Of a stretch of DNA of 64,000 bases, positions 2,096 to 57,183 are shown piece after piece. A program made the translations under genes and the position numbers. Under the pieces are notes generated by a model. That model ran no database searches, had not been told where the DNA came from, and saw only the letters and a list, made by a program, of their open reading frames with translations. The first letter of the stretch is position 1, and every line of letters starts with the position of its first letter. The stretch comes from Acidobacteriota bacterium (GTDB lineage Bacteria > Acidobacteriota > UBA6911 > RPQK01 > CBDAPI01). The DNA lies in contig OZ240092.1 of NCBI GenBank assembly GCA_965197285.1, positions 3,947,337 through 4,011,336 of the forward strand, written 5' to 3'.

Positions 2096-2164
2096 GAGTG
2101 GGAGGGGGCTCAGGGCAGCGCGACGTTTAAATTCCCGAGCGCGGCCCTGAGCCTCCTCCCGCTC
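2096..2164. repeat. GC-rich palindromic REP-like element, A-type, TTTAAA centre (copy 1)
   Basis: GAGTGGGAGG..GCTCAGGGC....TTTAAA....GCCCTGAGCC..CTCCCRCTC dyad; near-identical inverted copy at 3263-3331. Confidence 0.7.
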
Positions 2165-2301
2165 TCGGCTCCCCCGGGCAGCTTCCGCGCTGCTGCGCAG
2201 TCACTGTCGTTCCTGGGAGAGCGGCCTGTCGGCCGCTGGCTTTCACTTCCCTGGTTTCCCCAACGACGAAATGGGGCAGGCGTTAGAATGGAGGCTGGTA
2301 C

Positions 2302-3240
2302 TTGTCAATGTGTAAGACCGTCCTCGGCGCTATCCTTCTTGCTGCCGCTCTGGTCCCGTCGAATCCCGGGGTCCGGGGTGAAGACCAGACTTCGCTGTCC
2401 CAACTCAGGTCGAGGGCGCAGGCGGCCATGCAGGCGCGCCGCTTCAGCGAGGCGACCCGCCTGCTGACAAGCATTACAGAACACGATCCGGAGGATGGGG
2501 AGGCCTGGCTCAGGCTGGGCCTCTGTCACCTCAAGCGTCTGCGCTACAAGAGGGCCATTGAGGCACTCCAGCAGGCCTTTCACCTGGATCATGAGCCGGC
2601 GGAAACCAGCTTCCGGATCGCCTTCGCCTACGCCCGGCGAAGGCACGACAAAAAGGCCCTCGAATGGCTGGAGACGTCCGCCGGGCTCGGTTTCAATCGT
2701 CTATCGGAAGCCCGAACATCGAGTGCGTTTCTGGCCTTGCGCGATGCGCCCGAGTTCGATCGGATTCTTCTGATGATCGAGAAAAACCAGAATCCATGCG
2801 AACATTCGGCCGGACACAACCAGCTCGATTTCTGGCTGGGAGATTGGGAGGTCTACACTCCGGCTGGAAGTAAAGCTGGAGAGAATCGCATTGAGAAGAC
2901 TGCGGGTGGCTGCCTGCTTCTCGAAGACTGGAAGTCGGTCAGCGGCGGGACCGGGCGAAGCATGACCTTTTACCATGCCGGGCGCGACAAGTGGCGTCAG
3001 GTGTGGGTCGACCGCGGAGGCTCGACAATCGAGGCCGAAGGAAGCTTCACCCACGGAAAGCTGCGTCTGGAGGGCGTCCACACCCGGATGGGCGGTGGAT
3101 CGGAGAAATGTGTCATCACTCTCGAATTGCTCCCGGACGGACGCGTCCACCAGAAGATTGAACAGTCGCCCGATGGGACCAACTGGTACGTCTGGTTCGA
3201 GGGAATGTACGTGCGGCCCCGCGACGAGGCTGACCCTTGA
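2302..3240 (+). CDS. secreted TPR-repeat protein (signal peptide, ATG alternative at 2308)
   Basis: N-terminal hydrophobic signal; TPR-like helices (EAWLRLGLCHLKRLRYKRAIEALQQAF). Confidence 0.6.
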   Translation: MSMCKTVLGAILLAAALVPSNPGVRGEDQTSLSQLRSRAQAAMQARRFSEATRLLTSITEHDPEDGEAWLRLGLCHLKRLRYKRAIEALQQAFHLDHEPAETSFRIAFAYARRRHDKKALEWLETSAGLGFNRLSEARTSSAFLALRDAPEFDRILLMIEKNQNPCEHSAGHNQLDFWLGDWEVYTPAGSKAGENRIEKTAGGCLLLEDWKSVSGGTGRSMTFYHAGRDKWRQVWVDRGGSTIEAEGSFTHGKLRLEGVHTRMGGGSEKCVITLELLPDGRVHQKIEQSPDGTNWYVWFEGMYVRPRDEADP

Positions 3241-3262
3241 TTGTTCGCGTGAAGTTAAAGAA

Positions 3263-3331
3263 GAGTGGGAGGAGGCTCAGGGCCGCGCTCGGGAATTTAA
3301 ACGTCGCGCTGCCCTGAGCCTCCTCCCACTC
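3263..3331. repeat. GC-rich palindromic REP-like element, A-type (copy 2, inverted relative to copy 1)
   Basis: reverse complement of 2096-2164; sits between convergent gene ends. Confidence 0.7.
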
Positions 3332-3384
3332 TTTCGTCATGGTCAATCTCGCCCGGTCGCCGCTGATTCCTGCCTCTTGGACGG

Positions 3385-5883
3385 TCACCCTTCAATCAAC
3401 TGTCTGACGGCCGCCTCCAGACGGGCTGCCAGCTGATCCGGAGTTTCTCCTTCTTCAAGTTGCAGAGGCTCTCCAAAGGCAACTCGAACCGGCCCCCGCC
3501 GCGGCCAGGAATCGTGAAGCGACAGGCTCTCGAACGTGCCCTGGATGCCGACCGGGACGACGGGGACATCCAGTTCTCGCGCCAGCAGGCCTACGCCGCT
3601 CTTGAAGGACTGCACTCGGCCGTCCGGGCTACGTTTCCCTTCCGGGTAGATCAGAATGCAAAGCCCTCCTTCCGCCAGTTCTCCGGCGTAGCGGAGGGTG
3701 TCCCCGAACCCACCCAGCCGCTGAGGCAAGGGAAACGCACCAAACAGGAGGCACGCCAGGGCGAACTTGCCGGCTGCCGAGAGTCTATCCCCAAGCGATG
3801 AGGTGGCGCTCCAGCAGGCCTCGAAGTATTCCTTCCTGACCGCCGGAGCGATCCGTAATCTCCAGCCCGCCGGCACCGCCGCGAGGACCGCAGCCGTGTC
3901 CAGGTGGCTGCAGTGATTGGCGGCAAACATGAGCGGGGGATCCAGGCTCCCGAGAGCACCCAGTCCGCGAATCTCGAGATCCATCAGGAGGCGAAAGAAC
4001 GGGCTCGCGACCAGATTCAGGAAGGCCCATCGCAACCCGCGGCCGGGAAGGCTCCGAGAGAGGCGGGGTACCCGGTTGTGACTCTCCTTCGCCCCCGAGC
4101 CCGGGCCGCCCGCCCCGGCTTTCCGGATCAAATCCTGAAGATCCTCCACGGTGCGAGCTTCCGAGATGGCCGTTTCCGTGATGCTGACACCAAAGCGGTC
4201 CTCCATCCGGCCCAGCAGCTCCACACGATCCAGTGAGGACAAACCGAGGTCTTCGTCCAGGCGACCGCCCTCGACAGCTCCATGGCCTGGAAGCAGTTGC
4301 TCCAGAGGGTCCTCGATCCGGCGGGGCCCGGAAGAAGCTCCGCGAATCTCTTCGGCCACGCGGTGACGTCTGATCTTCCCGGTGGACGAGGTTCGCGGAA
4401 AGTCGTCCTCCGACCACACCGACCAGCTTCGGATTCTTTGATGTTCCAGCAATTGCAGATTGGCGCAGGCAACGTGTTCACGCGCAGGCACCGATCCATC
4501 CTCAAGGATCAGCGCGGCGTGCACGATTTCCTCCCCGGGGCTGGGCCGTTGTGCCACCACGGCACTGTCGCGCACTCCCTCGAGCCGATTCAAAACGCCT
4601 TCGATGTCTTCCGGGTAGACATTCAGACCGGAGGAGGTCACGATGACGTCCTTTTTTCGACCCAGAAAGTAGAGACGTCCCTGCTCGTCCAGGCGGCCGA
4701 TGTCGCCGGTGTGGAGCCACCCCTCCCGGAGCAGTTTTTCCGTTCGGCCCCCGGGCCCGAGCCGCTCCGAGGCCACGCTGGGCCCACGCACCAGGATCTC
4801 TCCGTCGGGGGCCAGCTCGACTTCCTGGCCCGGGACCGCTTCACCCAGTGCTCCAGGCCGGGAACGGAAGGGATGATTCACGGCTACGACAGGGCTGCTC
4901 TCCGTGAGCCCGTAGCCTTGAACGACCACGAATCCCAGTTCTTTCCAGAACTCTTCGAGCTCCTTTTCAACCGCCGCCCCACCGACGACAAACGCCCAGA
5001 ACTTGAAACCGACTCTGCGGTGAAACGATCGGTGCCGCCACCACCGGGCCGCCACCGCGGCCCAGCCTCTGGTGCCCGCTGCAATCGGTGGCCGGGTGGC
5101 TCCGGCGATCTCGTCGTGCAGCCCCCTCAGCATCCTGGGAACCAGGCAGACGACCGACACCCGGTGGTCGCGAATCGTGCTCAACACCACCCTGGGGCTG
5201 TGGCGGCGGCTCAAGACGACCGATCCTCCCAGCAGAACAGGAATGAAGAGCCCGATGGCCTGGCCGAACATATGGCTGAGAGGCAGGAGGTTGAGGATTC
5301 TCACAGGCTGAAACGGCCATGCCATCCATCGGTAGCGCCGGATCTCGAGGCGAAAGGGTTCCAGGTTCGAGCAGATGTTGCGGTGGCGATGGATCACACC
5401 GGACGGTCGGCCGGTGGTCCCGGAGGTGAAAAGGATCTGAACGGGCTGCTCCGGATCGAGGCTCTGAGGCGACGGCGGCTCAGGGTAGCGGTCGCGGCTG
5501 ACTCGCGTGAGGCGCTCTCTATTCGGCCAGGGAGCCGCATCAGTTTCTTCGCCGTGCAAAAGCAGGTCGGCCCCAACCTGCTCGAGAACGCGCCCGATCA
5601 TCTCGACCGTGCTGCGACTGTCCAGGGGCACGACCTGGACTCCGCTGAGCACACACGCCCAGAAGGCAAAGACCCATTCAGGACGGTTTTCCGACCATAG
5701 AATCACGCGGCTCCCGGCGCCCAGATCCCGGGAGACAAGATATCCCTGGAAGACTCGGATTCGGTCCAGCAGCTCTCGATAGGAAAAATGAAAAGTCCGA
5801 AATCCGTTGTCGTAGCGCAGCGCCTCCCTGTTCCCCAGGCGCTCCATTTCCGGAACCAGGTCAGCCAGTGTGGACAGAGCCAT
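3385..5883 (-). CDS. tri-domain fusion: AMP-dependent acyl-CoA/acyl-ACP synthetase + acyl-carrier (PP-binding) domain + PlsC-type lysophospholipid acyltransferase
   Basis: FTSGTTGRPSGV AMP-binding motif; DLGLSSLDRVELLGRMEDRFG carrier motif with Ser; NHCSHLD (HX4D) and IYPEGKRSPDG LPLAT motifs. Confidence 0.85.
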   Translation of the reverse strand: MALSTLADLVPEMERLGNREALRYDNGFRTFHFSYRELLDRIRVFQGYLVSRDLGAGSRVILWSENRPEWVFAFWACVLSGVQVVPLDSRSTVEMIGRVLEQVGADLLLHGEETDAAPWPNRERLTRVSRDRYPEPPSPQSLDPEQPVQILFTSGTTGRPSGVIHRHRNICSNLEPFRLEIRRYRWMAWPFQPVRILNLLPLSHMFGQAIGLFIPVLLGGSVVLSRRHSPRVVLSTIRDHRVSVVCLVPRMLRGLHDEIAGATRPPIAAGTRGWAAVAARWWRHRSFHRRVGFKFWAFVVGGAAVEKELEEFWKELGFVVVQGYGLTESSPVVAVNHPFRSRPGALGEAVPGQEVELAPDGEILVRGPSVASERLGPGGRTEKLLREGWLHTGDIGRLDEQGRLYFLGRKKDVIVTSSGLNVYPEDIEGVLNRLEGVRDSAVVAQRPSPGEEIVHAALILEDGSVPAREHVACANLQLLEHQRIRSWSVWSEDDFPRTSSTGKIRRHRVAEEIRGASSGPRRIEDPLEQLLPGHGAVEGGRLDEDLGLSSLDRVELLGRMEDRFGVSITETAISEARTVEDLQDLIRKAGAGGPGSGAKESHNRVPRLSRSLPGRGLRWAFLNLVASPFFRLLMDLEIRGLGALGSLDPPLMFAANHCSHLDTAAVLAAVPAGWRLRIAPAVRKEYFEACWSATSSLGDRLSAAGKFALACLLFGAFPLPQRLGGFGDTLRYAGELAEGGLCILIYPEGKRSPDGRVQSFKSGVGLLARELDVPVVPVGIQGTFESLSLHDSWPRRGPVRVAFGEPLQLEEGETPDQLAARLEAAVRQLIEG

Positions 5884-5913
5884 GGGTCACGCGATCGGAA
5901 ACTGACATCCGCC

Positions 5914-6396
5914 CTACCAGTCTTTCTCCCCGATGGGCATGCCGTCCTCCAGATACCAGGTGTCCTCGGCGTATTTCCTGGCCACAAACAGAAAGAGTTG
6001 ACGCTTGGCGTCGGCCTCGGCCAGTGGGACCTGGACGCTCAACCTGAGTTTCGCACCGGTGGCGGGAGCGCTGGCACCGTCCAGCACGTACCCCTTCACG
6101 TTGAGCTGTTCAACTCCCCACCATCCCTGGGTATTGTGCCCCTGCTCGAAAGTCGCGACCGGAACATCGAGCAGCGATTCATTCTCGATCAACTCGAGTT
6201 TCGCGCCGGTCAGCTCGCCGTCGGCACATCCGATTCCCAGACGGTAGGCTTCCCCGGCCGAGAAAGAGCCGAAAGTGACGATCATGTAAACGGTGTCATC
6301 TTTGGTTCGGATCACCGGACTATCCATAGAGGCCCGCTGTCCAAACGAGGAGCCGCAGAGGGCTATGAAAATGAGCCATGCCGCCGATCTCGTCAT
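5914..6396 (-). CDS. small secreted protein, unknown function
   Basis: signal-peptide-like N-terminus (WLIFIALCGSSFG); no recognisable motif. Confidence 0.45.
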   Translation of the reverse strand: MTRSAAWLIFIALCGSSFGQRASMDSPVIRTKDDTVYMIVTFGSFSAGEAYRLGIGCADGELTGAKLELIENESLLDVPVATFEQGHNTQGWWGVEQLNVKGYVLDGASAPATGAKLRLSVQVPLAEADAKRQLFLFVARKYAEDTWYLEDGMPIGEKDW

Positions 6397-6638
6397 TGGA
6401 ATCCCTTTCGATTTCTCCCGCTCCGGAAATTGTAGCTCTAACCGCCCCGCGCGGCAATGGCACTCGCCGGAACGGCTCTAGTGCACTGTCCGGAAAGTTC
6501 GCGCCGCTACTTCGGGCGTCTTTTCGCCGACAGCTTTGTTGCGCTTCCTCGAAAGACGCCCGGCCTTCCTGCGTCGCGCGCCTCACTGTCAACGAAAATC
6601 CATCCCGAATTAACACCACGAACTTCCCGGACAGTACA

Positions 6639-7355
6639 CTAGCCCAGCTCTCGAAATACTCTCTCAGGATGGTTGGAGATGATCCCATCGACGCCCAGGT
6701 CGATCATTCTCCGGATCTGGCGAGGTGCGTCGACGGTCCAGACAAAGACTTCAATGCCGTCGCGATGGGCATCCCGAATCACGACATCGCTGGCCAGCTT
6801 CCGCGACAAGGCCAGGTAGCCAGCCCCCGCACGGTTGGCTCCTCCAACGTAGTCAGGTGGGGCCGTTTTGTACAGCGCCGCATACCGCAGTCCCGGTGCC
6901 AGGCCATGCAGATGCCGGACTGCCTCGAGATCGAAGCTTTGAAGGATGCAGCGCGATCCCATTTCAGCCTGAAGAATCTCCTCAACCACGCGTCGGCAAC
7001 CCTGCATCAGCAGATCACTTTCCTTTAACTCGATCAACAGATCCACCGGGCTGGGGCGCACCTGCTCCAGAACCTGGCCCAGCGAGGGAACCCGCTCGCG
7101 CTCGAAGGCGGAATCAAACCAGGAGCCCGCCGCCCACTGTCTGATCTCGCGAAAGCTCAGTTGGCTGACCCTTCCCTTGCCACTGGTGGTTCGATCGAGC
7201 GTGGGATCATGGATGACCGCCGGCTGCAGGTCGCGAGTAAACTGGATGTCGAGCTCAATCAGATCGCACCCGCGTTCAATGGCCAGCTGAAAAGCTGCTA
7301 AAGTATTCTCCGGAGCGGCCCCCGAACAACCACGGTGGGCGATGACCTTGACCAC
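6639..7355 (-). CDS. glycerophosphodiester phosphodiesterase (GDPD family)
   Basis: VIAHRGCSGAAPENTLAAF...ELDIQFTRD GDPD signature. Confidence 0.8.
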   Translation of the reverse strand: MVKVIAHRGCSGAAPENTLAAFQLAIERGCDLIELDIQFTRDLQPAVIHDPTLDRTTSGKGRVSQLSFREIRQWAAGSWFDSAFERERVPSLGQVLEQVRPSPVDLLIELKESDLLMQGCRRVVEEILQAEMGSRCILQSFDLEAVRHLHGLAPGLRYAALYKTAPPDYVGGANRAGAGYLALSRKLASDVVIRDAHRDGIEVFVWTVDAPRQIRRMIDLGVDGIISNHPERVFRELG

Positions 7356-7387: not shown

Positions 7388-8359
7388 ATGAAAGCGATTC
7401 AGATCAGCAGCTTTGGAGGGCCGGAGGTTCTAGAACCGGTGTCGGTTTCCTCCCCATCTCCCGGACCATCCGAAGTTCTCGTCCGACTTGACGCCGCAGG
7501 AGTCAATTTCATCGACACTTACCACCGGACCGGAGCCTATCCCGCCGAGCTTCCATTCATTCCGGGAGTGGAAGGGGGCGGAACGGTGGCCGAGGTTGGA
7601 TCGGAGGTGGATGGGGTTAAGGAGGGAGATCGCGTGACGTACAGCATGAACCTCGGCTCCTATGCGGAATGGGCAACGGTCCAGGCTGCTCACCTGCTGC
7701 CGGTGCCGGACGGTGTGGATATGGGCTCGGCGGTGGCGGCCACGGTTCAGGGGTTGACCGCCCACTACCTGGCCCGCTCTACTTATCGGCTGACTGCGGA
7801 ATCGGCCGCGCTTGTCCACGCCGCAGCCGGAGGAGTGGGTAGGCTGCTGGTCCAGATGGCACGCGCAGTGGGTGCCGAAGTCTTTGCGACAGTGGGGAGT
7901 GAGGCAAAGGTAGAGATCGCTCGCGGCGCCGGTGCCCAGCACGTAATCAACTACAGCCGGGAGGACTTCGTAAAGCGTGTGCTCGACGGCACGGATGGTC
8001 GAGGCGTAGATGTCGTGTACGATTCGGTTGGGCGTGATACCTTTCAGAATAGTCTGAAGTGTGTTCGGCCGCGTGGCCTGCTTTGCCTGTTTGGCCAGAG
8101 CAGTGGAGCGGTTGAAGCGGTGGACCCGCAGGTGCTCAGTGCCGCAGGCTCCGCCTTCCTGACACGACCCTCTCTGGCCCATTATTCCGCCTCGCGGGAA
8201 GAGCTTCTGGAAAGGGGACGAGAGGTGTACCGGTGGATGAAGGAGGGAGCCGTGTCGGTGCGAATCGACCGGACCTTCCCGCTGCAGGAAGCGGCCGACG
8301 CCCACCGAGCCCTGGAGAGTCGTGCAACTATGGGAAAGATTCTGCTTCTCAACGAGTAG
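7388..8359 (+). CDS. NADPH:quinone oxidoreductase / zinc-type alcohol dehydrogenase-like (MDR superfamily)
   Basis: N-terminal GroES-like fold plus AAAGGVG Rossmann motif; 323 aa, typical Qor length. Confidence 0.8.
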   Translation: MKAIQISSFGGPEVLEPVSVSSPSPGPSEVLVRLDAAGVNFIDTYHRTGAYPAELPFIPGVEGGGTVAEVGSEVDGVKEGDRVTYSMNLGSYAEWATVQAAHLLPVPDGVDMGSAVAATVQGLTAHYLARSTYRLTAESAALVHAAAGGVGRLLVQMARAVGAEVFATVGSEAKVEIARGAGAQHVINYSREDFVKRVLDGTDGRGVDVVYDSVGRDTFQNSLKCVRPRGLLCLFGQSSGAVEAVDPQVLSAAGSAFLTRPSLAHYSASREELLERGREVYRWMKEGAVSVRIDRTFPLQEAADAHRALESRATMGKILLLNE

Positions 8360-9332: not shown

Positions 9333-9947
9333 TCACGACGGATCGGGCACAGCCATCGCCGCCACTTCCCGGTATCGAGGGCAGTCGGTTGTGTGATCGT
9401 TGACCATCCCCACGGCCTGCATCATCGCATAGCAAATGGTGGATCCGGCAAACTTGAAGCCGCGGCGGCGCAATTCCCCGCTCAGTCGATCCGACTCCGG
9501 ACTCGTGACCGGCAGCTCGCGGAGGTGTTTCCAGGAATTCTGGATCGGCCTGTTGTCGACAAAACTCCATAGAAACTTCGCGAATTCGCCGAATTCTTCC
9601 TGAACCTGAAGGAAGGCTCGTGCATTCGTAATTGCCGACCTGATCTTCAACTGGTTGCGGATGATGCCGGGATTGGCGAGCAGCCGCTGCACGTCCTCTT
9701 GGGTGTAGGCGGCAACCCGGGCGGGGTCGAAGTGATCGAATGCCTTCCTGTAATTCTCCCTCTTTCGCAGGACTGTCAACCAGCTCAACCCGGCCTGGGC
9801 CCCATCCAGCGTAAGGGCCTCGAAGAGCAGCCGGTCATCGCGCACCGGCACTCCCCACTCCGTATCGTGATATTCCTCATACAACGGATCGGAACTCACC
9901 CAGGCGCAGCGGACGACCCGCTGGGGACTTCCGGTTGGCTCAATCAT
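9333..9947 (-). CDS. tag: DNA-3-methyladenine glycosylase I
   Basis: EYHDTEWGVP and Cys/His zinc site typical of Tag. Confidence 0.9.
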   Translation of the reverse strand: MIEPTGSPQRVVRCAWVSSDPLYEEYHDTEWGVPVRDDRLLFEALTLDGAQAGLSWLTVLRKRENYRKAFDHFDPARVAAYTQEDVQRLLANPGIIRNQLKIRSAITNARAFLQVQEEFGEFAKFLWSFVDNRPIQNSWKHLRELPVTSPESDRLSGELRRRGFKFAGSTICYAMMQAVGMVNDHTTDCPRYREVAAMAVPDPS

Positions 9948-9960
9948 GCTGATGTCGTCC

Positions 9961-9995
9961 GAATTAAGAATTAAGAATTAAAAATTAAAAATTGA
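9961..9995. repeat. AT-rich MITE-like repeat, site A (single copy, approx coords)
   Basis: GAATTAAGAATTAAGAATTAAAAATTAAAAATTGA in a 62% GC background; same motif at 18459, 18723, 26549, 26726. Confidence 0.6.
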
Positions 9996-13506: not shown

Positions 13507-13534
13507 GGGAGTCGCCCCGGGGCCCCGCCCACTC
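13507..13534. repeat. half-copy of the GC-rich palindromic element (B-type arm)
   Basis: GGGAGTCGCCCCGGGGCCCCGCCCACTC matches the right arm of the element at 57114-57183 in all but 2 positions; lies between convergent stops. Confidence 0.5.
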
Positions 13535-13541
13535 TGGGCAG

Positions 13542-46958: not shown

Positions 46959-46966
46959 TTCGCCGC

Positions 46967-47795: not shown

Positions 47796-49613
47796 TTGGC
47801 TGCGCAGGAGCCCCAGTTCCGAATAGCTCGATCTCTCGTCCTCTTGATTTTCGGGCTTCTGCCCCTGGTGGTTTCCGTCGCGGGCCTGGACAAATTCCGC
47901 ACGCCGAAAGACATCGTGATCACCTCGGCGATTCCTCTCCTGGCAGTCATCTGTCTGGCCGGTTCCTCATTCAGAATCCGTTTGGGCGTCTTCGAGTGTA
48001 CGGTTCTTGGGGCCGCGGTCTACGTTCTGATTCACGGATTTTATCAGGGTGGAATGGAAGCTGCGGTCACGCTCTGCCTGTTCGCGCTGTGGCTGCTGCT
48101 CCTGTCCCGGCTCCTGTCCTGGCGGTTTCAGAAGCGTGTCTGGCTGGTGGCGGCGCTTTCTCTCAGTCTCAACTGCGTGGCCAATGTTGTGCAGTATTTT
48201 GGGATGTTTCCGTGGATGCTGCGAGATGGCGGAAAGGCCATGTCGGGCCGGGTGACGCCGGCAGGCCTGCTCGGGGAAGTCGGCACCGGAGCGATCCTTT
48301 TCGGCATGATCGTCCTGATGTCCATTTACTTTCTCCTCTTCGAGCGGAATCGGTCGCTTCGAGTCGGCTGGCTGTTGGTCTCCCTGTTCAACCTGGTGGG
48401 CCTGCTGCTCACGCGTACGATGACGGCAAGTCTGGCGCTGACAGGATGCCTCCTTCTGTGGCTGGGCTTTCACCACTGGTGGGTCGTCAAACGCCACCCT
48501 CAATCGCGTCGCCGGCTGGCAGCTCTATGGGCTGTTATCGTGGTGGGAGGGGGGTTGGCTGCCGCCTTTGCAGTTCAGTCGGAACTCTGGGACCGCGTCT
48601 CGCGAGCCGCCCGCCAGGCGATGAGCGGAAGCCTGGAAGTGGCCACGGCGGGGCGCTACTCCGTGTATCTGATCACGTGGGACATGATCAAGGACCGGCC
48701 GCTGGCGGGTCGCGGACTCACGTCCTTCGCACCAGCCTTTTACCACCAGCGGACCGAGACCGGGTACGGCCGCGAAGTAGCGCTTCTCCCCCAGGCGGGC
48801 GCCTTTCGAGAGGCCCACAACGAGTACCTGCAAACCTGGGCCGAACTCGGGTTGCCGGGCTTGCTCTTACTCACCGGGCTGCTGGGTTTCTCTCTATTCT
48901 CTGCACTTCGCCTGTCTTTCAGGGAAACCGATCCGCAACGATGCTATTGGGCCGGAATCCTTGCCCTGGCCCTGATCTATTTTCTCATCGCTTCGCTGAC
49001 CATGTTTCCTCTTCATGTCAGCTCCACCGCGATCTTTGTCTGTTTGATCGTGGCGTCCATTCGACATCTCGATCGCTACGGGTTCGAGGAAAACGGTACC
49101 CCTTCAACCGAAGGAGGGGGTAGGAGACGAAAGCTGCTGGCGGCCGTCGCGCTGATCCTGTCCCTGCCCCTGCTTTACGGGCAGTACCAGAAATGGCAGG
49201 CGAACAATTCACTTGGCATGGCGGCGTTCTTGCTGGAGGGGGCCAGCCGGCAGAATCTCAACACCCGGCAACTCCGAACCGTAGCGACGCGGGCGCTGGC
49301 TCTGCTGGATCGTCCCGAGTCGAGTCGCGCCTGGTTTCCGGAGCTTCATAGCCTGCGAGGTTCGGCCGCCATGTTTCTGGGCCGCTACCGGATGGCAGAG
49401 GCATCCTACCGGAAGGCTATAGTCAGGATTCCAAGTCCTGAAACGATGACCAACCTGGCGGCGGCTCTGATTGCCCAGAACGAATGCGAGAAGGCCGAGC
49501 CTTTTCTCCAGTCGGCCCTCCGCTACAATCCGGGGTACCGCGAGGCCGGCCAGGCCCGCCAATACTGTCGCCGCCAGAAACGGCGAAGCACGGGGCCGAA
49601 AAAGGAGCCATGA
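47796..49613 (+). CDS. O-antigen ligase/polymerase-family membrane protein (Wzy_C) with C-terminal TPR domain
   Basis: multi-TM with RGLTSFAPAFYHQ...AHNEYLQTWAELGLPG Wzy_C loop; C-terminal TPR-like helices. Confidence 0.7.
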   Translation: MAAQEPQFRIARSLVLLIFGLLPLVVSVAGLDKFRTPKDIVITSAIPLLAVICLAGSSFRIRLGVFECTVLGAAVYVLIHGFYQGGMEAAVTLCLFALWLLLLSRLLSWRFQKRVWLVAALSLSLNCVANVVQYFGMFPWMLRDGGKAMSGRVTPAGLLGEVGTGAILFGMIVLMSIYFLLFERNRSLRVGWLLVSLFNLVGLLLTRTMTASLALTGCLLLWLGFHHWWVVKRHPQSRRRLAALWAVIVVGGGLAAAFAVQSELWDRVSRAARQAMSGSLEVATAGRYSVYLITWDMIKDRPLAGRGLTSFAPAFYHQRTETGYGREVALLPQAGAFREAHNEYLQTWAELGLPGLLLLTGLLGFSLFSALRLSFRETDPQRCYWAGILALALIYFLIASLTMFPLHVSSTAIFVCLIVASIRHLDRYGFEENGTPSTEGGGRRRKLLAAVALILSLPLLYGQYQKWQANNSLGMAAFLLEGASRQNLNTRQLRTVATRALALLDRPESSRAWFPELHSLRGSAAMFLGRYRMAEASYRKAIVRIPSPETMTNLAAALIAQNECEKAEPFLQSALRYNPGYREAGQARQYCRRQKRRSTGPKKEP

Positions 49614-49643
49614 GGACTGTCTAGCACCAGGCCGGAAGAAAGT

Positions 49644-50612
49644 AGGATTGGAATCGACGCCCGCTCCCTGCGTTGGGGACCGGCAGGTGTTGCTACTTAC
49701 GTCTCCAATCTCCTGCAATTCCTTCCCTGGCTCGACGCTCTGGAATCCTCCAGGCCGGTGAACAACCTGCTCTTCAACTGCGTGCGGGTGCCTCTGGCCG
49801 CGTGGCGCCGCCGATGGCAGGTGTGCCACGCTCCCTCCTACACCTGTCCACTCGTCAGTCCTTGTCCGATCGTCATGACCGTTCACGACATCTCCTATCT
49901 GGCCCACCCCGAGTGGTATCCATACAAGCGAGGGGTCGCGCGACAGGCCTACTACCGGGCCTGTCTGCGGCGGGCGGATCGAATCGTGGTTCCTTCACGG
50001 TTTTCGGAACAGGAGATTGTGGACCGTTTTCCGGGCCTGGAGGGACGGATCCGGATCGTTCCGATGGGGGTGTCCGAGTTCTTCTCGCCCGCCCCCGACC
50101 TGGCCCGTGAAGTCTGTCGAGAGCTGAATCTTCCCTCCCGGTTCATTCTGCACGTGGGGGATCTGCATGTGCGTCGCAATCTGTGGCTGCTTCAGCGGGC
50201 GGCCGAGCAGGTGGGTTTGCCACTCGTCCTGGTTGGAAGACCCCTGGAAGAGGGTTCGATTCCCGACGGAGCTCTGCTCTTCACTGACATTTCAATGGAC
50301 AGGCTCAAAGGGATCTACTCTGCCGCAGCCGTTTTTGCCTACCCGTCCCTGTACGAGGGATTCGGTCTGCCGGTCCTGGAGGCGATGGCCTGTGGGGTTC
50401 CGGTTGTGGCCTCCGACCGGGGCTCCCTTCCCGAGGTTTGCGGCCAGGCCGCCGAACTGGTGGAGCCCGACCAGGACGGCCTGGTTGCCGGCATAGAAAG
50501 AGCGCTGGGAAATGGTGAAGTCCTCCGCAAGAGAGGTCTGGTGCGAGCCTCGGGTTTTTCCTGGGAGCAAACGGCGGCTGCGACGCTGGAAGTGTACCGT
50601 GAACTCATGTGA
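49644..50612 (+). CDS. GT4-family glycosyltransferase; the N-terminal Rossmann domain is in frame from 49614 but lacks a canonical start codon
   Basis: RIGIDARSLRWGPAGVATYVSNLL typical GT4 N-terminus upstream of the listed ATG 49758; C-terminal EGFGLPVLEAMACGVPVV motif. Confidence 0.7.
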   Translation, partial: RIGIDARSLRWGPAGVATYVSNLLQFLPWLDALESSRPVNNLLFNCVRVPLAAWRRRWQVCHAPSYTCPLVSPCPIVMTVHDISYLAHPEWYPYKRGVARQAYYRACLRRADRIVVPSRFSEQEIVDRFPGLEGRIRIVPMGVSEFFSPAPDLAREVCRELNLPSRFILHVGDLHVRRNLWLLQRAAEQVGLPLVLVGRPLEEGSIPDGALLFTDISMDRLKGIYSAAAVFAYPSLYEGFGLPVLEAMACGVPVVASDRGSLPEVCGQAAELVEPDQDGLVAGIERALGNGEVLRKRGLVRASGFSWEQTAAATLEVYRELM

Positions 50613-50819
50613 GCCCAACCGGCTGGCACAACAGGCCCCTGCGAGACGGACCGCTATCAGCGCTTCGAGGCCACACGGCGCGTGACCTTGCCCCCTAAAA
50701 CGGGTCCAAGTTGAATGTTAGGATTTTCGGTTTTAGGAAGGAGGCAAGGATGGCACGGAAGCGGTTTACGGCAGAACAAATCATCATGAAGCTGCGTGAG
50801 GCAGAGGCAGGTCTAGCCC

Positions 50820-52552
50820 GCATAGATCACCGATTTGGAAATGAAGGTGATTTTGGCAGGCCGGAACGGTTTTCTGAGAGTTTCGCTATCGATCCGGTCC
50901 AGGTCGAGTGATGCGGTGGTGTGGAGGGTCGTGAATGGAGCGTTTTTCGGGCTCGGAAGAGGGTGACGGAACGGATTCAGGCAGAGCTCGGCCTGAGCGA
51001 TGGAACGATTTCGTTTTTGGGGCGTTTGATCGGGACAGACCTCAGCAGCGCAGAGGAATGGCCTGGAGGTTTCGAACGACGGCAGCGAAGACCTCGCTGT
51101 AGGGATAGGCTTCCGACATGGAGATCCAGACGTGGCGGACCGTGAGGCGGACCTGGGCGCCGATCTTGAGGAGCTTCAAGCGAATCGTCTGACACTGAGC
51201 GCGAGCCAGGGGGGTCTGCTTCAGTCCGAGACGACGCAAGGCGTGCATGAGCATGTAGGCGGCGGAGGACAGATACAGCCGGAGTTGATTGGCGCGCATC
51301 GTTGCCGCGCTGGTCCGGTCGGCGAACAGATCCAACTGCTGTTCTTTTATGCGGTTCTCCATGTCGCCCCGCGCACAGTAGAAGTCTTCGTAGAGCGCGC
51401 GGGCCCCCAGGCGTTCCGGCGACAGGGAGGTGACGATGAATCGGGGATTGGCGCCTTTCTCCAGGAACTCGGCCTTGCCGACGACGCGTCGCTCCGAGGT
51501 CCAACTGTGGCGAGTCCGGTAGCGGAAATCCTGGAACACCCGCGCCGGTCGCCCGGTGGCGTTGAACTCGGCTTCGGCCTGAGTCATCGCTTCGGCGATC
51601 TCTGACTTGAGCCGATCATTGTTGGCCAACCCCATCACGTAATCCACGTGATGGTCTTCACACCAGCGGAGCAAGTCATCCCGGCAAAAGCCAGAGTCGG
51701 CCCGGATGACGATCGAGACCTCCGGCCAGCTCTGCCGAATCCGGCCGACGATCCGTTCCAGTTCCTCCGCCGATCCCGCGGCCCCATCGATATTGGAACA
51801 CCGCAACCGGGCGCACAGCAGATGCTCCCCCGAGAAGATGTACAGCGGGAGATAACAGTAGTGGCGGTAGTAACCGTGAAAGAACCGGCCTTCCTGCTGG
51901 CCATGGATCGGGTCGTCGGTCGCATCCAGATCCAGCACGATCTCCTCGGGCGCCGATTCGTGGGACTCCACGAAGGCATCCACCATCCAGCCGTCGATCC
52001 GGTCCGGGTCCATCGCGATCTTCTTGTACCGCTCCTGCTCATCGACCTCGGCGCCGGTCAACTCCAACCGGTTCAGCGTACACCTGCCCGCCAGCGCCTT
52101 CCCCCGATCTGAGGCCTGCCGCCGCCGCTCCCCCAACGGATCGGCCTTATTCACCGCCACCGCCAGCATCGGATCGGTGCGCAACTGATCATGATCGTTC
52201 AGATCCTCGTACCCCAGACAGAGTCCGTAGATGCGCTGCCCCAACAACTCCTCGACCGTGTGTTCGATCAACCGCGGATCCCGGTGATCCCTGAAGCACG
52301 CGGTCAGTCCGGCAACGAGACCCGTCCGCTGCTCGACCTCGCGTAACAGCAGCACCCCTGCATCGGAGGTGATCTTCCCGCCGTCGAACCGCGCCTTCAC
52401 TTTGCGTTGAAATAGTCCGTGAAATTCGAACCTGGCTTGTTTACACTCTGTTCTCATAAGGGCCGCCTCCGTTTGGCTTTGAAGTCTTTCATTCAAAACG
52501 CTTTATACCAAACAGGGCGGCCTTTTGAGGTCCTATCGGTGAGAAATGGCGG
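50820..52552 (-). mobile_element. IS1380-family insertion sequence, copy b (a different member from copy a), nested inside IS3 copy 2
   Basis: IRs GCATAGATCACCGAT / rc CCGCCATTTCTCACCGAT; target CTAGCCC present on both sides (TSD 4-7 bp, exact ends ambiguous). Confidence 0.65.
51042..52496 (-). CDS. IS1380-family DDE transposase
   Basis: FDGGKITSDAGVLLL, LDLDATDDPIHGQQE, FHGYY, ADSGF, YCARGDMENRIKE signatures. Confidence 0.9.
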   Translation of the reverse strand: MNERLQSQTEAALMRTECKQARFEFHGLFQRKVKARFDGGKITSDAGVLLLREVEQRTGLVAGLTACFRDHRDPRLIEHTVEELLGQRIYGLCLGYEDLNDHDQLRTDPMLAVAVNKADPLGERRRQASDRGKALAGRCTLNRLELTGAEVDEQERYKKIAMDPDRIDGWMVDAFVESHESAPEEIVLDLDATDDPIHGQQEGRFFHGYYRHYCYLPLYIFSGEHLLCARLRCSNIDGAAGSAEELERIVGRIRQSWPEVSIVIRADSGFCRDDLLRWCEDHHVDYVMGLANNDRLKSEIAEAMTQAEAEFNATGRPARVFQDFRYRTRHSWTSERRVVGKAEFLEKGANPRFIVTSLSPERLGARALYEDFYCARGDMENRIKEQQLDLFADRTSAATMRANQLRLYLSSAAYMLMHALRRLGLKQTPLARAQCQTIRLKLLKIGAQVRLTVRHVWISMSEAYPYSEVFAAVVRNLQAIPLRC

Positions 52553-53661
52553 CTAGCCCAAGGACAGACGGTGGGCCAGGTGTGCAAACAGATTGGGGTG
52601 ACCGAGCAGACCTACTACCGGTGGCGCAAGGAGTACGGAGGGCTTCGACTGAATCAGGCCAAGCGGTTGAAGGTGTTGGAGAAGGAGAATGCCCGGTTGA
52701 AGAAGCTAGTGGCAGATCTGTCTTTGGACAAGCAGATCCTAAAGGAAGTTTCCTCGGGAAACTTCTAGGCCCGGCGAAGAGGAGACGCGCAGTGGTGTGG
52801 GTGAGGGAGAGATTGGGAGCAGAGCGCGTCTCCGAACGTCGGGCCTGCCAAGTGCTGGGACAGGCTCGATCGACCCAGCGAAGGGAAAGGCATATCCCCG
52901 ATGATGAGGCTCGATTGGTGGCTGAGATGGTGGAGTTGGCCACGCACTACGGGCGATACGGCTACCGACGGATCACGGCCATGCTTCGTTGGGAAGGGTG
53001 GAAAGTGAATCACAAGCGGGTGGAGAGGTTGTGGAGACAGGAGGGGCTGAAAGTCCCGTCCAGACAGCCGAAACGAAGGAGACTGTGGCTTCATGATGGA
53101 TCCTGCGTTCGGTTACGAGCGGCTCACAAGGATCACGTCTGGAGCTATGACTTCGTGCATGAGCGAACCCATGACGGAAGGGCCTTTCGATTATTAACCC
53201 TACTGGATGAATACACCCGGGAGTGTCTGGCCATTGAGGTTCAACGACAGATGAATCACCAGGACGTGTTGGATCGATTGGCGGAGTTGTTCGTGGATCG
53301 GGGAGTGCCTGAATACATTCGGTCCGATAACGGGTCGGAGTTTACGGCTCAGGCGGTTCGGGACTGGCTGAAGGCTGTTGGGGTGAGGACCTTATACATC
53401 GAGCCCGGCAGCCCCTGGGAGAATGGATATGTGGAGAGCTTCAACGGAAAACTGCGGGATGAACTGCTGAACGTAGAAGTCTTCGACACGTTGTGGGAAG
53501 CGAAGGTGTTGGCCGAGAGATGGCGCAGGGAGTACAACCAGCGACGGCCTCACAGCGCCTTGGCCTATCGGCCGCCGGCGCCGGAGGCCAGATTACCCAG
53601 GTCCCAGGCCCAGAGTTCTATACCATGGAGTGGACTTCAAATGGTCCCAGGTCTAACTTAG
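52546..53661 (+). CDS. IS3-family transposase OrfB (copy 2)
   Basis: near-identical to 44083-45162. Confidence 0.8.
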
Positions 53662-53687
53662 AGAGTGGACTCGTTCCTGGGGGCAGG

Positions 53688-54557
53688 TCAGCGACTGCCT
53701 CCGAGCTTCTGTCGAAACCGCCGGGCCGCATGCGCCAGGTCGATTCCGGCCAGCACCAGGCGGGTCTGGAGCGGGTGGGCCCTGGGAGCGTAGTGTTTGG
53801 CATGGAAGATCTTCATGGCGTCAAAAAAATGCCTGGTGTTCACCGCCGTGTCCTGGTCTGAGCTGCGACTCTTCAGGTGGGTAACTGTGGCCCCGGCATA
53901 GTACTCCACCAGCCAGCCCGCCTGGAGGGCCCGATAGCAGAAATCCAGGTCCTCGCCATAGAGGAAAAACCCTTCATCCAGGAGCCCGATCTTCTCGGTC
54001 AGTTCTCGGCGAAACATCAGAAACGAACCGGAGACCGCTTCCACCGGCTGCGTCTTGTTTTCGTCCAGAGAGGTCAGGTTGTAGGCTCCGAACTCCCGAC
54101 TGCGGGGAAACAGTCGGCTCAGCCCGAGAAAGCGATAGATCGAATTTCGGACCGTGGGTATGGAGCGCTGGCAGGCCAGCTGGAGACTCCCGTCGGGATT
54201 CAGGATCCGGCATCCCACTACACCCGTCTGCGGGCGGCTCCGAAGGTAGTCCAGGGTCTTCTCGATGGCGTTGTCGTGAATGATAACGTCCGGATTCAGG
54301 AGCAGGAAAAAGGGGGCAGTAGCGTGACGGATTCCACGATTGCAGGCTTTGGCAAACCCCTCGTTGTGCCGATTGAGGAGAAGCACGGGTGAAGAACAGC
54401 GGAGTTCGTTTTCCAGCCGGGACTGGTCAGAGGAAGCGTTGTCCACGACAACCACTTGGATCTGGTCTTCTTGATTCGCCCTTCGTATGCCGGACAGACA
54501 CTGAAGAAGGTCGGCAGTCGAGTTGTAGTTCACGATGATGACGGATAGTTGCATCAC
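53688..54557 (-). CDS. GT2-family glycosyltransferase; its stop codon is supplied by the IS3 terminal TCA (last about 6 native codons replaced)
   Basis: VIIVNYNSTADLLQCL...VVDNASSD GT2 N-terminus; reconstructing the pre-insertion sequence gives ...LGGSRRVASKR*. Confidence 0.8.
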   Translation of the reverse strand: MMQLSVIIVNYNSTADLLQCLSGIRRANQEDQIQVVVVDNASSDQSRLENELRCSSPVLLLNRHNEGFAKACNRGIRHATAPFFLLLNPDVIIHDNAIEKTLDYLRSRPQTGVVGCRILNPDGSLQLACQRSIPTVRNSIYRFLGLSRLFPRSREFGAYNLTSLDENKTQPVEAVSGSFLMFRRELTEKIGLLDEGFFLYGEDLDFCYRALQAGWLVEYYAGATVTHLKSRSSDQDTAVNTRHFFDAMKIFHAKHYAPRAHPLQTRLVLAGIDLAHAARRFRQKLGGSR

Positions 54558-55528
54558 GATGGATCCGCGGTCTTGCGCCGGTACTTGAGCCAGTTCCGCT
54601 CCAGATGAAGCCGGACTTCACTGCTGCTTACAGTGCGGCCCCCCTGGATCCTCTTTCGTTTTCTAACGACGGTGCGGCTCGCTTTGAGAGCATCCAGTTT
54701 CGCCCGCACAAAGGCTGTCCCCCGTCCCTGACTGAAAAAGAAAAGGAGTGCGAGGAGATTGAAGAGGGCTCTTTCTGGAAGATAAAAGAGCAGCAGCCGG
54801 GTCGGCATGTTCTTCCAGAACACGAATTCCGAGTTTCTGTGGCCGTGAAAGACATAGGAATCAGTAAACGTTCCAATGCTGCTGTTCACGCCATGAAGCA
54901 CGCGGGCATCAGCCACATAGAGGCAGCGAAAGCCCATCAACCTGGCTCTGAAGTTCAAATCGGCGTCCTCGTAGACCAGGAAAAAGTCAGGGTCGAATCC
55001 TCCTACGGTTTCCAGGAGACTCCTCCGATACAGTGCGGCCGCAGCACAGGGCCCGAATACTTCCCGCGTTTCCAGATGCTGGTCGACCGGGTCGCCATGG
55101 CCGATCTTGAAGGCAGATCCGACGACAGCCATACCGTCTCCGGCACTGTCGATGACACCCGGTGGGGAGGCAAACTCGATTCTGGAAGCCCAGAAGGACC
55201 ACTCTGGGGAATCGTGATCGAGCAGGGTCTTCAACCAGTCCGAATCGAGCACGACGTCATTGTTCAGGATGGCGATCAAATCCCCACGGGATCTCTCGAT
55301 GCCGGCGTTGCACCCGGCCGGGTAGCCGACGTTGTCAGAAAGAGGAAGTACCCTGAGACGTGCGTCTTTGATCGGGTTCAGGATGTCCAGGCTTCGATCT
55401 GCCGAATGGTTGTCAACGACTATGACCTCCCCCGGGGGGGATGACTGGGAGAGGATCGAGTCTACACAGCTCTGGAGAAATTGTTTCCCGTTGTAGTTCA
55501 CAACTACAACTGACACCGATGGCGGCAC
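54554..55528 (-). CDS. GT2-family glycosyltransferase
   Basis: VSVVVVNYNGKQFLQSCV...VIVVDNHSAD; 4-bp overlap with the downstream gene. Confidence 0.85.
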   Translation of the reverse strand: MPPSVSVVVVNYNGKQFLQSCVDSILSQSSPPGEVIVVDNHSADRSLDILNPIKDARLRVLPLSDNVGYPAGCNAGIERSRGDLIAILNNDVVLDSDWLKTLLDHDSPEWSFWASRIEFASPPGVIDSAGDGMAVVGSAFKIGHGDPVDQHLETREVFGPCAAAALYRRSLLETVGGFDPDFFLVYEDADLNFRARLMGFRCLYVADARVLHGVNSSIGTFTDSYVFHGHRNSEFVFWKNMPTRLLLFYLPERALFNLLALLFFFSQGRGTAFVRAKLDALKASRTVVRKRKRIQGGRTVSSSEVRLHLERNWLKYRRKTADPS

Positions 55529-55580
55529 GACCGTATATTATAATTTAGCGGCAGTGGCTGCGGGCGGATTGGGAGAAAAA

Positions 55581-57047
55581 ATGAAAGCGGGTCAAGCGAG
55601 TATGGCGGCTGGTGTCCGCACGGTCCCTGCCGGAGCGAATGGGACTCTCGACTCGGTTGTCTCCAATCGGCTCTTTCTCGTCTTAGTCGATCTGTCGATC
55701 GGGTGCCTGGCCTATCTCGCGGCTTGGCTGGTTCGCATTCACCTTCACATCCCCTTTACCCAGGAGCTGATCGGCCAGACGCGATGGCTGGTGGTCAGTC
55801 ATCCCTGGATCATGCTGGTCTTCACCCAGCTCTTCTTTCCCTATCTGATGGGCCTGTACGATGACCTCCGGCAGGTACGAAAACGGGAGCTGGTAACGGT
55901 TACGTTCATCGCCTGTGTCATGCAGGTGTCGCTGGTCACGTCGACCCTGTTTTTCCTGAATCCTCAGACGCCGGGAGAGACGGAAGGGCTCTTCCCCAGG
56001 ACCGTCATCGTCCTTTTCGGCGGCTTCAACCTGGTCGGCCTTCTTGCCTGGCGGGCGTACCTGCGAAGTCGAGTCAGAAAGCGGACGCGCCGCATTCTGG
56101 TGGTGGGGAGACGTTACGGCCATGCCAGCGAACTGCTGGAGAATGTGGCCCGGAGCCCGGGGGGCGAGATCGTCGGACTCGTCCTGGAGCGTCCTGATAC
56201 CGGCCCAGAGGGTGGCTCGAAGTATCCGGTGCTGGGAGACGTTTCCAACGTCGGCGAGATTGTTGATCATTTCGGGGTAGACGAAATCGTCTTTTGCTCA
56301 GCTCCATCCTGGCGCGATCGGGTACTGAACCGTTTGTGCCAGTTGCAGGAGGAATCGCGGGTAAACATCGGGATTCACCCCTCGCCATTCGACATCACGA
56401 TCGGAAAGCTGAGGCATATCAACATCCACGATACTCCCCTGATTGAAGTCAAGGAGAACCCCAACGAACCTTTCGAACGGTTCCTGAAACGCGCTTTTGA
56501 TCTGACTGTTGCCAGTGCTGCATTGATTCTCACTGCACCTCTTATGCTTGTGATTGGCGGACTGGTCAGGCTCACTTCCAAAGGGCCGGCTTTCTATGTC
56601 CAGGAGCGGGTAGGGCAGCATGGAGCCCCTTTCCGCCTATTCAAATTTCGGACCATGGTCGTCCACGCGGAAAAAGCGTCCGGCGTCACCCTGGCGGTTC
56701 CCAACGACCCTCGTGTCACCCGTTTTGGACGCATCCTGCGCCGCTCCCGGCTGGATGAACTGCCTCAGATCTGGAATGTGATCAGAGGTGATATGAGCTT
56801 CGTTGGTCCTCGCCCCGAGCGTCCCTATTTTGTGGGTGACTTTGAAAAAAGCGTGCCGGGCTATGCAGAGCGACACAGGGTGAAACCCGGGATGACAGGC
56901 CTGGCCCAGGTTCGCAGTTTCTACGACACTCGGCCGGAGAGCAAGCTCAAATACGATCTTGCGTACATCTACAACTACAGTCTGTCACTCGATCTTCTGA
57001 TTCTGCTCGAGACCCTGAAAGTGATCCTCACCCGCCGGGGAAGTTAG
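55581..57047 (+). CDS. polyprenyl-phosphate hexose-1-phosphate transferase (WbaP/EpsB-like priming sugar transferase)
   Basis: N-terminal TM block plus C-terminal bacterial sugar transferase domain (KRAFDLTVAS...RLFKFRTM...DELPQIWNVIRGDMSFVGPRPERP). Confidence 0.85.
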   Translation: MKAGQASMAAGVRTVPAGANGTLDSVVSNRLFLVLVDLSIGCLAYLAAWLVRIHLHIPFTQELIGQTRWLVVSHPWIMLVFTQLFFPYLMGLYDDLRQVRKRELVTVTFIACVMQVSLVTSTLFFLNPQTPGETEGLFPRTVIVLFGGFNLVGLLAWRAYLRSRVRKRTRRILVVGRRYGHASELLENVARSPGGEIVGLVLERPDTGPEGGSKYPVLGDVSNVGEIVDHFGVDEIVFCSAPSWRDRVLNRLCQLQEESRVNIGIHPSPFDITIGKLRHINIHDTPLIEVKENPNEPFERFLKRAFDLTVASAALILTAPLMLVIGGLVRLTSKGPAFYVQERVGQHGAPFRLFKFRTMVVHAEKASGVTLAVPNDPRVTRFGRILRRSRLDELPQIWNVIRGDMSFVGPRPERPYFVGDFEKSVPGYAERHRVKPGMTGLAQVRSFYDTRPESKLKYDLAYIYNYSLSLDLLILLETLKVILTRRGS

Positions 57048-57062
57048 CGTTCCACCTTCCAA

Positions 57063-57183
57063 GAGTGGGAGGAGGCCTCCTCAGGGCCGCGACCGCCGGG
57101 CTGTGTCAAGAAAGAGTGGGCAGGGCCCCGGGGCAGCGACCGTTTAAATACCCCCGGGAGTCGCCACGGGGCCCTGCCCACTC
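57063..57183. repeat. GC-rich palindromic REP-like element, composite: partial A-type arm plus complete B-type 70-bp palindrome with TTTAAA centre
   Basis: GAGTGGGAGGAGGCCTCCTCAGGGCCGCG... then GAGTGGGCAGGGCCCCGGGGCAGCGACCGTTTAAATACCCCCGGGAGTCGCCACGGGGCCCTGCCCACTC. Confidence 0.7.

Follow-up and report, generated by a model that had tools for sequence, protein, structure and literature searches.

Hairpin-forming palindromes of about 69 nt recur at the ends of genes in a 64,000-nt stretch of an Acidobacteriota genome (contig OZ240092.1 of assembly GCA_965197285.1, positions 3,947,337 to 4,011,336; hereafter the window, meaning this whole stretch). These palindromes constitute a new, lineage-specific repeat family that is non-coding and non-autonomous and resembles repetitive extragenic palindromic (REP) sequences, REP doublets forming hairpins (REPINs) and bacterial interspersed mosaic elements (BIMEs). 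We consider it probable that the family was spread by a Y1 transposase and persists downstream of genes. Repeats of the REP type shape both the stability of genomes and the ends of transcripts, and they preserve a record of the long coexistence of a domesticated transposase with its host. To our knowledge, what is understood about such repeats comes almost wholly from Proteobacteria. The family described here provides a well-delimited REP-type example from uncultured soil Acidobacteriota, with a three-zone anatomy and two candidate enzymes. The little-understood class 3 group of Y1 transposases and a transition from IS200 elements to REP sequences would thereby become testable through binding and cleavage assays on single-stranded DNA (ssDNA).

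The copies in the window are listed below, with scores from a covariance model (R1) built on 53 distinct copies of the family.

E1, 2095..2165, plus strand: full hairpin, with the apex CGTTTAAATTCCCG on the plus strand (90.3 bits, E=6.7e-20).
E2, 3262..3332, minus strand: full hairpin, with the same apex orientation as E1 when read on the minus strand (92.2 bits).
E3a, 57063..~57105, plus strand: partial copy directly beside E3b, consisting of a single A-subtype arm that carries a 4-nt insertion (CTCC) and then runs into degenerate sequence.
E3b, 57113..57184, plus strand: full hairpin of the second (B) subtype, with the apex GCGACCGTTTAAATACCCCCGGGAGTCGC (74.6 bits).
E4, 13507..13535, plus strand: half copy, the right arm GGGAGTCGCCCCGGGGCCCCGCCCACTCT of the B subtype, with a weak model match (11.3 bits).

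E1 and E2 match in reverse complement (97% over 71 nt), each with a palindrome of 69 nt (2096-2164 and 3263-3331), and they surround a TPR gene in opposite orientation, much as an earlier note made from the sequence had described. E1 lies between tandem genes, 48-53 nt past the stop of an open reading frame (ORF) at 1060-2043 and 133 nt 5' of the TPR gene, and its CCGA foot (described below) sits on the opposite strand. E2 lies between two stops, those of the TPR gene (3240) and of an AMP-binding/acyltransferase gene (3385). The composite that the note placed at 57063-57183 was recovered as an A-type arm followed by a full B-type unit (57114-57183), and this full unit is located between a sugar-transferase gene (stop 57047) and an epimerase gene (stop 57195) and is identical in two more assemblies (loci L102 and L103). 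The proposed B-type half-site, E4, is 93% identical to the right half of E3b (57156-57184) and sits between a GHL10 gene (stop 13480) and a citrate synthase gene (stop 13542). Every copy in the window lies 8-62 nt 3' of a stop codon, three between convergent genes and E1 between tandem genes, which bears out the location claimed for them. The gene calls behind these positions were compared with those of the depositor (ENA ERZ25072076 ctg244364, 319 kb). The repeats also generate spurious ORFs as had been noted, with the peptide REWEGAQGSATFKFPSAALSLLPLSA. Two further claims stood in part. The termini GAGTGGG...CCCACTC are generally constant but not invariant, as the right terminus of E1 is mutated to CCCGCTC, and the internal stem does vary, but in a continuous manner instead of as two discrete subtypes, and the family has at least two types of apex and two of terminus.

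Folded as ssDNA, the three full copies reach -34.5 to -37.9 kcal/mol with z scores of -7.9 to -10 relative to shuffled sequences (E1, -34.5 and -8.5; E2, -37.9 and -10; E3b, -35 and -7.9), and E4 alone has no significant fold (z -1.5). The pattern GAGTGGG-N40-70-CCCACTC occurs twice in the window where 0.02 occurrences are expected, and the bare 7-mer is not enriched there (15 observed, 12.9 expected). Applied to all 64 kb, the covariance model returned E1, E2 and E3b as the sole full copies.

To evaluate the distribution of the family, we searched 185,579 species, each represented by a single genome, for the pattern GAGTGGG-N15-35-TTTAAA-N15-35-CCCACTC. At least 96 stretches matched, and among the matches listed approximately 70 fall in seven related Acidobacteriota metagenome-assembled genomes (OZ252114.1, CBDAPI, CBDBGQ, CBDBHK, CBDCBX, CBDFLV and JAKZYH); the remaining listed matches are AT-rich, share no further similarity and represent chance matches. 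On the complete chromosome OZ252114.1 (5.43 Mb), matches occupy at least 22 separate 8-kb blocks between 0.31 and 5.43 Mb. A sample of 69 Acidobacteriota loci (536 kb; loci are designated by L numbers), chosen for carrying a hairpin, gave 218 matches to R1 with each copy counted on both strands, and nhmmer resolved these into 112 full and 10 half copies. The pattern search beyond the window thus yielded further copies that are preferentially intergenic and 3'-located, and the proposal of a dispersed REP/BIME-type family is upheld by the many additional extragenic copies in related Acidobacteriota, their enrichment at 3' ends and the occurrence of BIME-like composites with a conserved linker. 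No copy was found in IMG/VR viral contigs, a full-text literature search for the motifs gave no relevant match, and the core motif appears in no searchable paper. No Rfam family reached its threshold for the whole window at gathering thresholds or for the E1-E2 region at E<=10; the sole matches were to miRNA-precursor hairpin models (30-40 bits where 62-168 are required), which reflects generic resemblance to long hairpins. The covariance model can serve to mask spurious ORFs (...EWEGAQGSATFKFPSAALSLLPL...), to flag palindromes prone to assembly errors and as a lineage marker in metagenomes.

Copies oriented by their asymmetric centre comprise three zones: an invariant base, a variable middle stem and a conserved asymmetric apex. 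The base is a perfect 11-bp inverted repeat, AGAGTGGGAGG/CCTCCCACTCT, with the minority variants AAAGTGGG/CCCACTTT and GAGCGGG/CCCGCTC. The middle stem of ~10-14 bp varies continuously in sequence among copies while its pairing is kept (for example CTCAGGGC/GCCCTGAG, CCTTGGGGC/GCCCCAAGG and CTCAGTG/CACTGAG); double compensatory changes occur in 14 of the 25 predicted pairs, and Watson-Crick pairs outnumber mismatches across the copies by 1836 to 110. The apex is non-palindromic, most often GCG-GA-CG[TTTAAATTCC]CG-GA-CGC or GCGACC[GTTTAAATCCTCCC]GGGAGC, and in it a short GC stem is followed by an internal loop of tandem G.A, two pairs and a loop of 10-14 nt with TTTAAA. Some apex columns are invariant outside the search pattern, namely CG before TTTAAA, T after it and then CCG. 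The median unit length is 69 nt (range 58-85). On the strand that reads CGGGAATTTAAACG, 51 of 95 copies carry the 5' tetranucleotide CnGA (CCGA in 44), compared with 11 of 95 on the other strand, where the foot is AAGA or GAGA, and this one-sidedness gives the whole unit a polarity. The apex is flipped relative to the flanks in about one in eight copies (L046 compared with L031, for instance). G.T wobbles favor folding of the strand reading CGTTTAAAT (51 to 28 wobbles; 33 to 14 copies), which hints that one strand may be the folded one, although the copies are non-independent. The consensus flanks are TCAAGA...TCGG and contain no U-tract. No direct repeats surround the copies, and any matching between the flanks is complementary and lengthens the stem. 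Integron attC sites (RYYYAAC...GTTRRRY) were considered and rejected, as the termini AGAGTGGG/CCCACTCT differ and the copies stand among housekeeping genes in all three arrangements (convergent, tandem and divergent), without an integrase in their context.

The inverted ends raise the alternative that the units are miniature inverted-repeat transposable elements (MITEs) derived from a DDE-type insertion sequence (IS), moved by a cut-and-paste transposase that recognizes the terminal inverted repeats AGAGTGGGAGG. The perfect 11-bp inverted repeat fits such an origin, and the genomes are IS-rich, with IS256, IS3 and IS1380 copies in the window itself; an IS1380-family element is present in 15 of the 69 loci, and four of its six full copies are only 25-70 nt from a hairpin. 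We nonetheless regard this origin as very improbable. Direct repeats are absent from the flanks, whose matches are complementary and lengthen the stem, a single hairpin with covarying pairs and a conserved tip is unnecessary for DDE-derived MITEs, and no DDE transposase with matching ends was found in 600 kb. The IS1380-family element, considered as the source of the repeats, was rejected because its ends (CTAGCCCGGATTATGCA) are unrelated to the hairpin. This element of ~1.66 kb occurs in copies 95-99.9% identical in L002, L008, L032, L041, L046 and L056 and also at 36543-37880 of the window, and its proximity to hairpins suggests either targeting of, or tolerance in, shared 'safe' intergenic sites.

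The same anatomy is better matched by the substrate of a Y1 transposase. Both foot and tip are fixed, the stem is constrained in its pairing only and target duplication is apparently lacking, all of which look like features of an ssDNA substrate for an HUH enzyme of this type. Two independent leads, set out below, converge on such an enzyme, and we judge a transposase link to be the most likely mechanism, with an even or somewhat better chance of being correct. The family shares with the REP, BIME and REPIN systems of E. coli, Pseudomonas and Stenotrophomonas the high copy number of extragenic hairpins, their enrichment at 3' ends and depletion at promoters, their occurrence as singles, inverted pairs and clusters with conserved linkers, the compensatory changes that keep pairing and the persistence of copies at orthologous sites. 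It differs from classical REP sequences (20-40 nt) in being a single hairpin of ~69 nt, nearer to the size of a REPIN, which is a doublet hairpin; in its CCGA or nnGA foot, where repeats associated with REP-associated tyrosine transposases (RAYTs) have GTAG or GTGG; in its conserved and asymmetric loop; and in that no RAYT gene is flanked by copies in the window, its 20-kb surroundings or the sampled loci.

A closer parallel is found in the repeats of the class 3 TnpA-Y1 proteins, which occur mainly in Planctomycetes, Acidobacteria and Proteobacteria including Legionella (Quentin et al. 2018, PMC6006769). Genes of this class have atypical hairpins on both flanks, with CnGA as the 5' foot, and Solibacter usitatus has ~600 copies of these hairpins (PMC6006769). 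These hairpins of ~20 nt have the form CCGC-GA-CC-[GTNA]-GG-GA-GCGG, and the encoded proteins carry the motif NHVH...YVxxEQ (PMC6006769); one example in Table S1 of that study is CCGA-GCCGCGACCGTAAGGGAGCGG, which reads CCGC-GA-CC-[GTAA]-GG-GA-GCGG. The host phylum, the 5' CnGA foot and the high copy number are common to both families, and the GC stem, tandem GA/GA internal loop and 2-bp inner stem of the class 3 repeat correspond to the apex of the hairpins described here. Some copies share CGCGACCGT...GGGAGCGG with class 3 repeats, and two share CCGCGACCGT...GGGAGCGG exactly. In our family, however, this module stands atop an extra stem of ~25 bp, and the loop is 10-14 nt with TTTAAA where class 3 repeats have a GTNA tetraloop. 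None of the sampled loci contained a class 3 repeat of the canonical short form. The resemblance of apex and CCGA foot is suggestive of a link to a class 3 enzyme.

The second candidate is an IS200-type element resident in the same clade. Locus L107 carries a PF01797 gene (13435-13920) for an IS200-type TnpA with the motifs DHVHLL...YIETQ, and the gene is also present in L055, L026, L057, L109/L110 and L108 and as a tandem dimer in L191, which makes six or more sites. The element is ~597 nt long and has perfect 12-bp inverted ends, GGGTCCCACTCT ... AGAGTGGGACCC. Two of its occurrences are as follows.

L191, 1030-2230: head-to-tail tandem dimer of the IS200-type element, in one genome.
L107, 13345-13944: copy of the IS200-type element.

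The ends have 9 nt in common with the base of the hairpin family, and for some copies the shared stretch reaches 14 nt (TCCCACTCTGGGAT); IS200/IS605-family elements and their gene-less derivatives, palindrome-associated transposable elements (PATEs), are accordingly among the closest known systems. In 723 kb, the 9-mer appears just a few times outside the family copies and the IS200-type ends. The junction of right end (RE) and left end (LE) in the L191 dimer, AGAGTGGGAC-CCTTCTCAAG-GTCCCACTCT, is predicted to fold into a hairpin with the same basal stem as the family. In the element, the motif faces outward from the gene, so that the family hairpin resembles such a junction and not a deletion derivative in which LE and RE are brought together. 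Relatives of the transposase from metagenomes (n=65, 63-83% identity) have a left end of the form GGGTC-NNNNN-TCTGGGATGGG with a variable core, and in all but one of the 65 the right end has no complement to it, which indicates that the motif-bearing ends are peculiar to the variant in this clade. Y1 transposases flanked by inverted repeats, termed 'TIRYT', are known from Acidobacteria (Di Nocera et al. 2013, PMC3733652). A junction-derived origin of the hairpins was examined by comparing the flanks of copies with the dimer junction and was not favored, as similarity past the motif is at chance level. Immediately 5' of the left end of the element stands TTAGG or TTAAG, which looks like a target site. 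A second, unrelated TnpA gene of the IS200/IS605 type (MSNYQSLQHTKWECKYHVVFIPKYRKK...) is found in the same clade at L083 7806-8000; it is 35% identical to the first, and its upstream flank is without the AGAGTGGGA motif.

The family itself, with its anatomy, distribution and turnover, is established by the data; the mechanism that follows, including the transposase link and any effect on RNA, is a proposal. The ssDNA hairpin and its adjoining short foot (CCGA, on one strand) would be recognized and cut by an HUH Y1 transposase encoded elsewhere in the genome, either a class 3 TnpA-Y1 or RAYT-like enzyme of Acidobacteria or the IS200-type enzyme of the clade. It would then transfer the unit, or a copy of it, to further intergenic sites, where local slippage and recombination between arms may produce pairs, arrays, half copies and the occasional flipped tip. 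Copies would survive where they are harmless, mostly just 3' of genes, and a stable hairpin in that position may incidentally influence transcript 3' ends. In a more far-reaching version, which we hold to be distinctly unlikely, the family would form a bridge between an insertion sequence and a REP system, having arisen from or co-evolved with the IS200-type element, with its TnpA or a class 3 relative cutting and rejoining the hairpins as pseudo-junctions. If this were true, the genesis of REP sequences from IS200 junctions would have been caught under way, and the invertible apex may have gained a role for the host.

The copies are arranged in several ways. They occur as single copies, inverted pairs ~90-100 nt apart, arrays and half copies; L095 has an array of four copies with a 162-nt period, L026 has tandem right-half copies beside a full copy (7455-7602), and half copies adjoining full copies recur across the family. 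A composite is present in at least six loci (L002, L016, L048, L091, L094 and L095), consisting of a hairpin of type 1, a conserved linker of ~95 nt that itself holds a right-half copy, and a hairpin of type 2 (GAAAGCGGGAGAGGG...CCCTCTCCCGCTTTCC) with the opposite apex orientation. This recurrent inverted composite with a linker is the BIME pattern.

Genomic context was determined with a simple codon-usage gene caller that reproduces the calls of the depositor. The context could be determined for 99 copies, and 90 of these lie cleanly between genes (tandem in 46 cases, convergent in 34 and divergent in 10). Nine appear to overlap ORFs, seven of them only at the extreme 5' end of the maximal ORF, where start codons are likely over-extended; of the other two, one reaches 42 nt into the 3' end of an ORF and one lies 372 nt inside an ORF running off the locus. 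No intragenic copy was confirmed, though the loci are 83% coding. The share of intergenic regions that hold a copy is 29% where the genes are convergent, 15% where they are tandem and 9% where they are divergent (chi-square p=8e-4), and eight divergent, promoter-side regions carry copies. In tandem contexts the apex shows no orientation bias relative to transcription (21 to 25), and copies show no preference for the upstream stop (nearer in 24) over the downstream start (nearer in 21). On OZ252114.1, no replication-strand bias was apparent by eye, without statistics, and inverted pairs dominate. Two large gaps without called genes adjoin copies: that in L049 looks non-coding, with ORF translations that are rRNA-like by eye only, and that in L097 is filled by a 620-aa ORF (4825-6687) missed by the gene caller.

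This context bears directly on the reading that the hairpins are primarily functional transcript elements, either bidirectional terminators or 3' hairpins that protect mRNA, maintained by selection with their repetition as a by-product. The stop-proximal position of all copies in the window, the enrichment between convergent genes, the very high stability of the hairpins, their retention at orthologous intergenic sites across species and the A-rich and T-rich flanks of the window copies (AAGAAA...TTTCGT) all fit such a function. Against it stand the consensus flanks without a U-tract, the balanced apex orientation, the absence of any preference for the upstream stop in tandem regions and the eight divergent regions with copies. 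Half copies, arrays of four and non-palindromic conserved linkers are poorly explained by this function, and Rfam offers no family beyond generic hairpin resemblance. A canonical intrinsic (Rho-independent) terminator in particular was rejected, given the 3' consensus flank TCGG and a simple terminator scan of window positions 1900-3500 that called neither E1 nor E2. The unbiased apex together with the missing U-tract makes a strand-specific RNA role unlikely, and with the half copies and the inverted pairs with linkers it indicates that the family probably acts at the DNA level. We therefore consider a primary transcript-level function unlikely, and the roles of terminator or mRNA stabilizer that had been proposed for the element are not favored as its primary role; the recombination site proposed along with them is putative.

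Turnover of copies was followed at orthologous sites, using the AMP-binding protein to find orthologues of the first 6 kb of the window. A strain with a 97% identical protein has E2, and its E1 site holds ~3 tandem partial copies. In a relative at 85% protein identity just 27 nt separate the genes at the E2 site, with no copy between them, and in one at 78% the E1 region is 59 nt without a copy and E2 is also absent. The E2 site of this last relative (L106 8500-8580, the orthologue of window positions 3241-3384) carries a different repeat, a GTAG-footed REP doublet, GTAGGGGCGACC...GGCCGGCACAAGACCGGCCCCTAC, so that one site attracts different REP families. Further orthologous sites, such as those 3' of a gene for an ABC-2 permease and beside one encoding 462 aa, hold one copy in one genome and two in another, and at a site shared by L060 and L078 the apex orientation is opposite and the middle stem is different.

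Persistence of sites across species also fits the possibility that the hairpins are protein-binding platforms domesticated by the host, serving the nucleoid, gyrase or replication as proposed for the BIMEs of E. coli, with apex and base as the binding sites. Sequence is invariant in the base and in the apex, including its TTTAAA and tandem G.A, but free to change in the middle stem, and BIME-like composites occur. However, we found no protein that might bind the hairpins, close relatives differ in whether and how often a copy is present, and the same conservation pattern is expected under recognition by a transposase. As an alternative explanation we consider such a role highly unlikely; it is compatible with spread by a transposase and does not exclude it.

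Several observations weigh against the proposed spread by a Y1 transposase. A REPtron, meaning a Y1 gene with full hairpins on its flanks, was not found in the window, the 20 kb on either side of it or the 69 loci sampled (600 kb), and the cognate RAYT gene that the earlier note had suggested looking for was likewise absent from the window and its 20-kb surroundings; E. coli RayT as a phmmer and tblastn query against all loci gave no match. A motif search of 5316 ORFs detected no class 3 gene, although the strict HUH...Y expression used also missed the IS200-type genes. Genes enclosed by two copies were considered as hidden transposases and rejected, namely the TPR gene of the window, an SDR gene in L095, a 140-aa ORF in L074 and ImuA/ImuB-like genes in L026, none of which is a transposase. 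Homology between the family and the IS200-type element ends at the 9-14-nt motif, with flanks at chance level. The strand signals conflict, as the G.T bias points to the CGTTTAAAT strand and the CnGA foot is 5' on the other. For E1 and E2, no filled site could be aligned with an empty one through its flanks so as to define insertion boundaries: at protein identities of 85% or less the intergenic sequence has diverged too far, and the strain at 97% has both copies. Finally, retention at orthologous sites across species could reflect host selection.

Other mobile elements in the window are concentrated at 34691-38523 and 43900-53700, IS-rich segments within a polysaccharide/glycosyltransferase region.

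34691-35983: IS256-family transposase.
36543-37880 and 51042-52457: IS1380-family transposases.
38083-38523: RepA_C gene.
~52.5-53.7 kb: apparent IS3-family copy, from precomputed rve and HTH_Tnp_1 matches.
~43.9-45.2 kb: apparent IS3-family copy, inferred solely from exact duplications (44054-44353 = 52553-52852 and 43924-44060 = 50683-50819).

Fibronectin-type-III repeat ORFs at 39700-43940 contain internal direct repeats of ~700 nt that are 69-83% identical (for example 39991/40720/41418 and 40406/41095), and local GC content reaches 69-71% at 42-44 kb. A match to the Rfam Acido-Lenti-1 RNA lies at 10110-10157 on the plus strand (39 bits against a gathering score of 37), followed on its 3' side by two GC-rich hairpin units of 37 nt (AAGAAAGCCCCCAAAGGGGGCG...) at 10159-10195 and 10230-10266. 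AT-rich heptamer repeats, (AATTAAA/AATTGAA)n, occupy intergenic positions 9947-10010, 18457-18500, 18725-18767, 26549-26584 and 26726-26754 in surrounding sequence of 59% GC. They form inverted pairs 150-235 nt apart (for example, 93% for 18464-18492 and 18727-18755), and related GTTGAA(A/C) runs adjoin hairpin copies in L016, L094 and L095.

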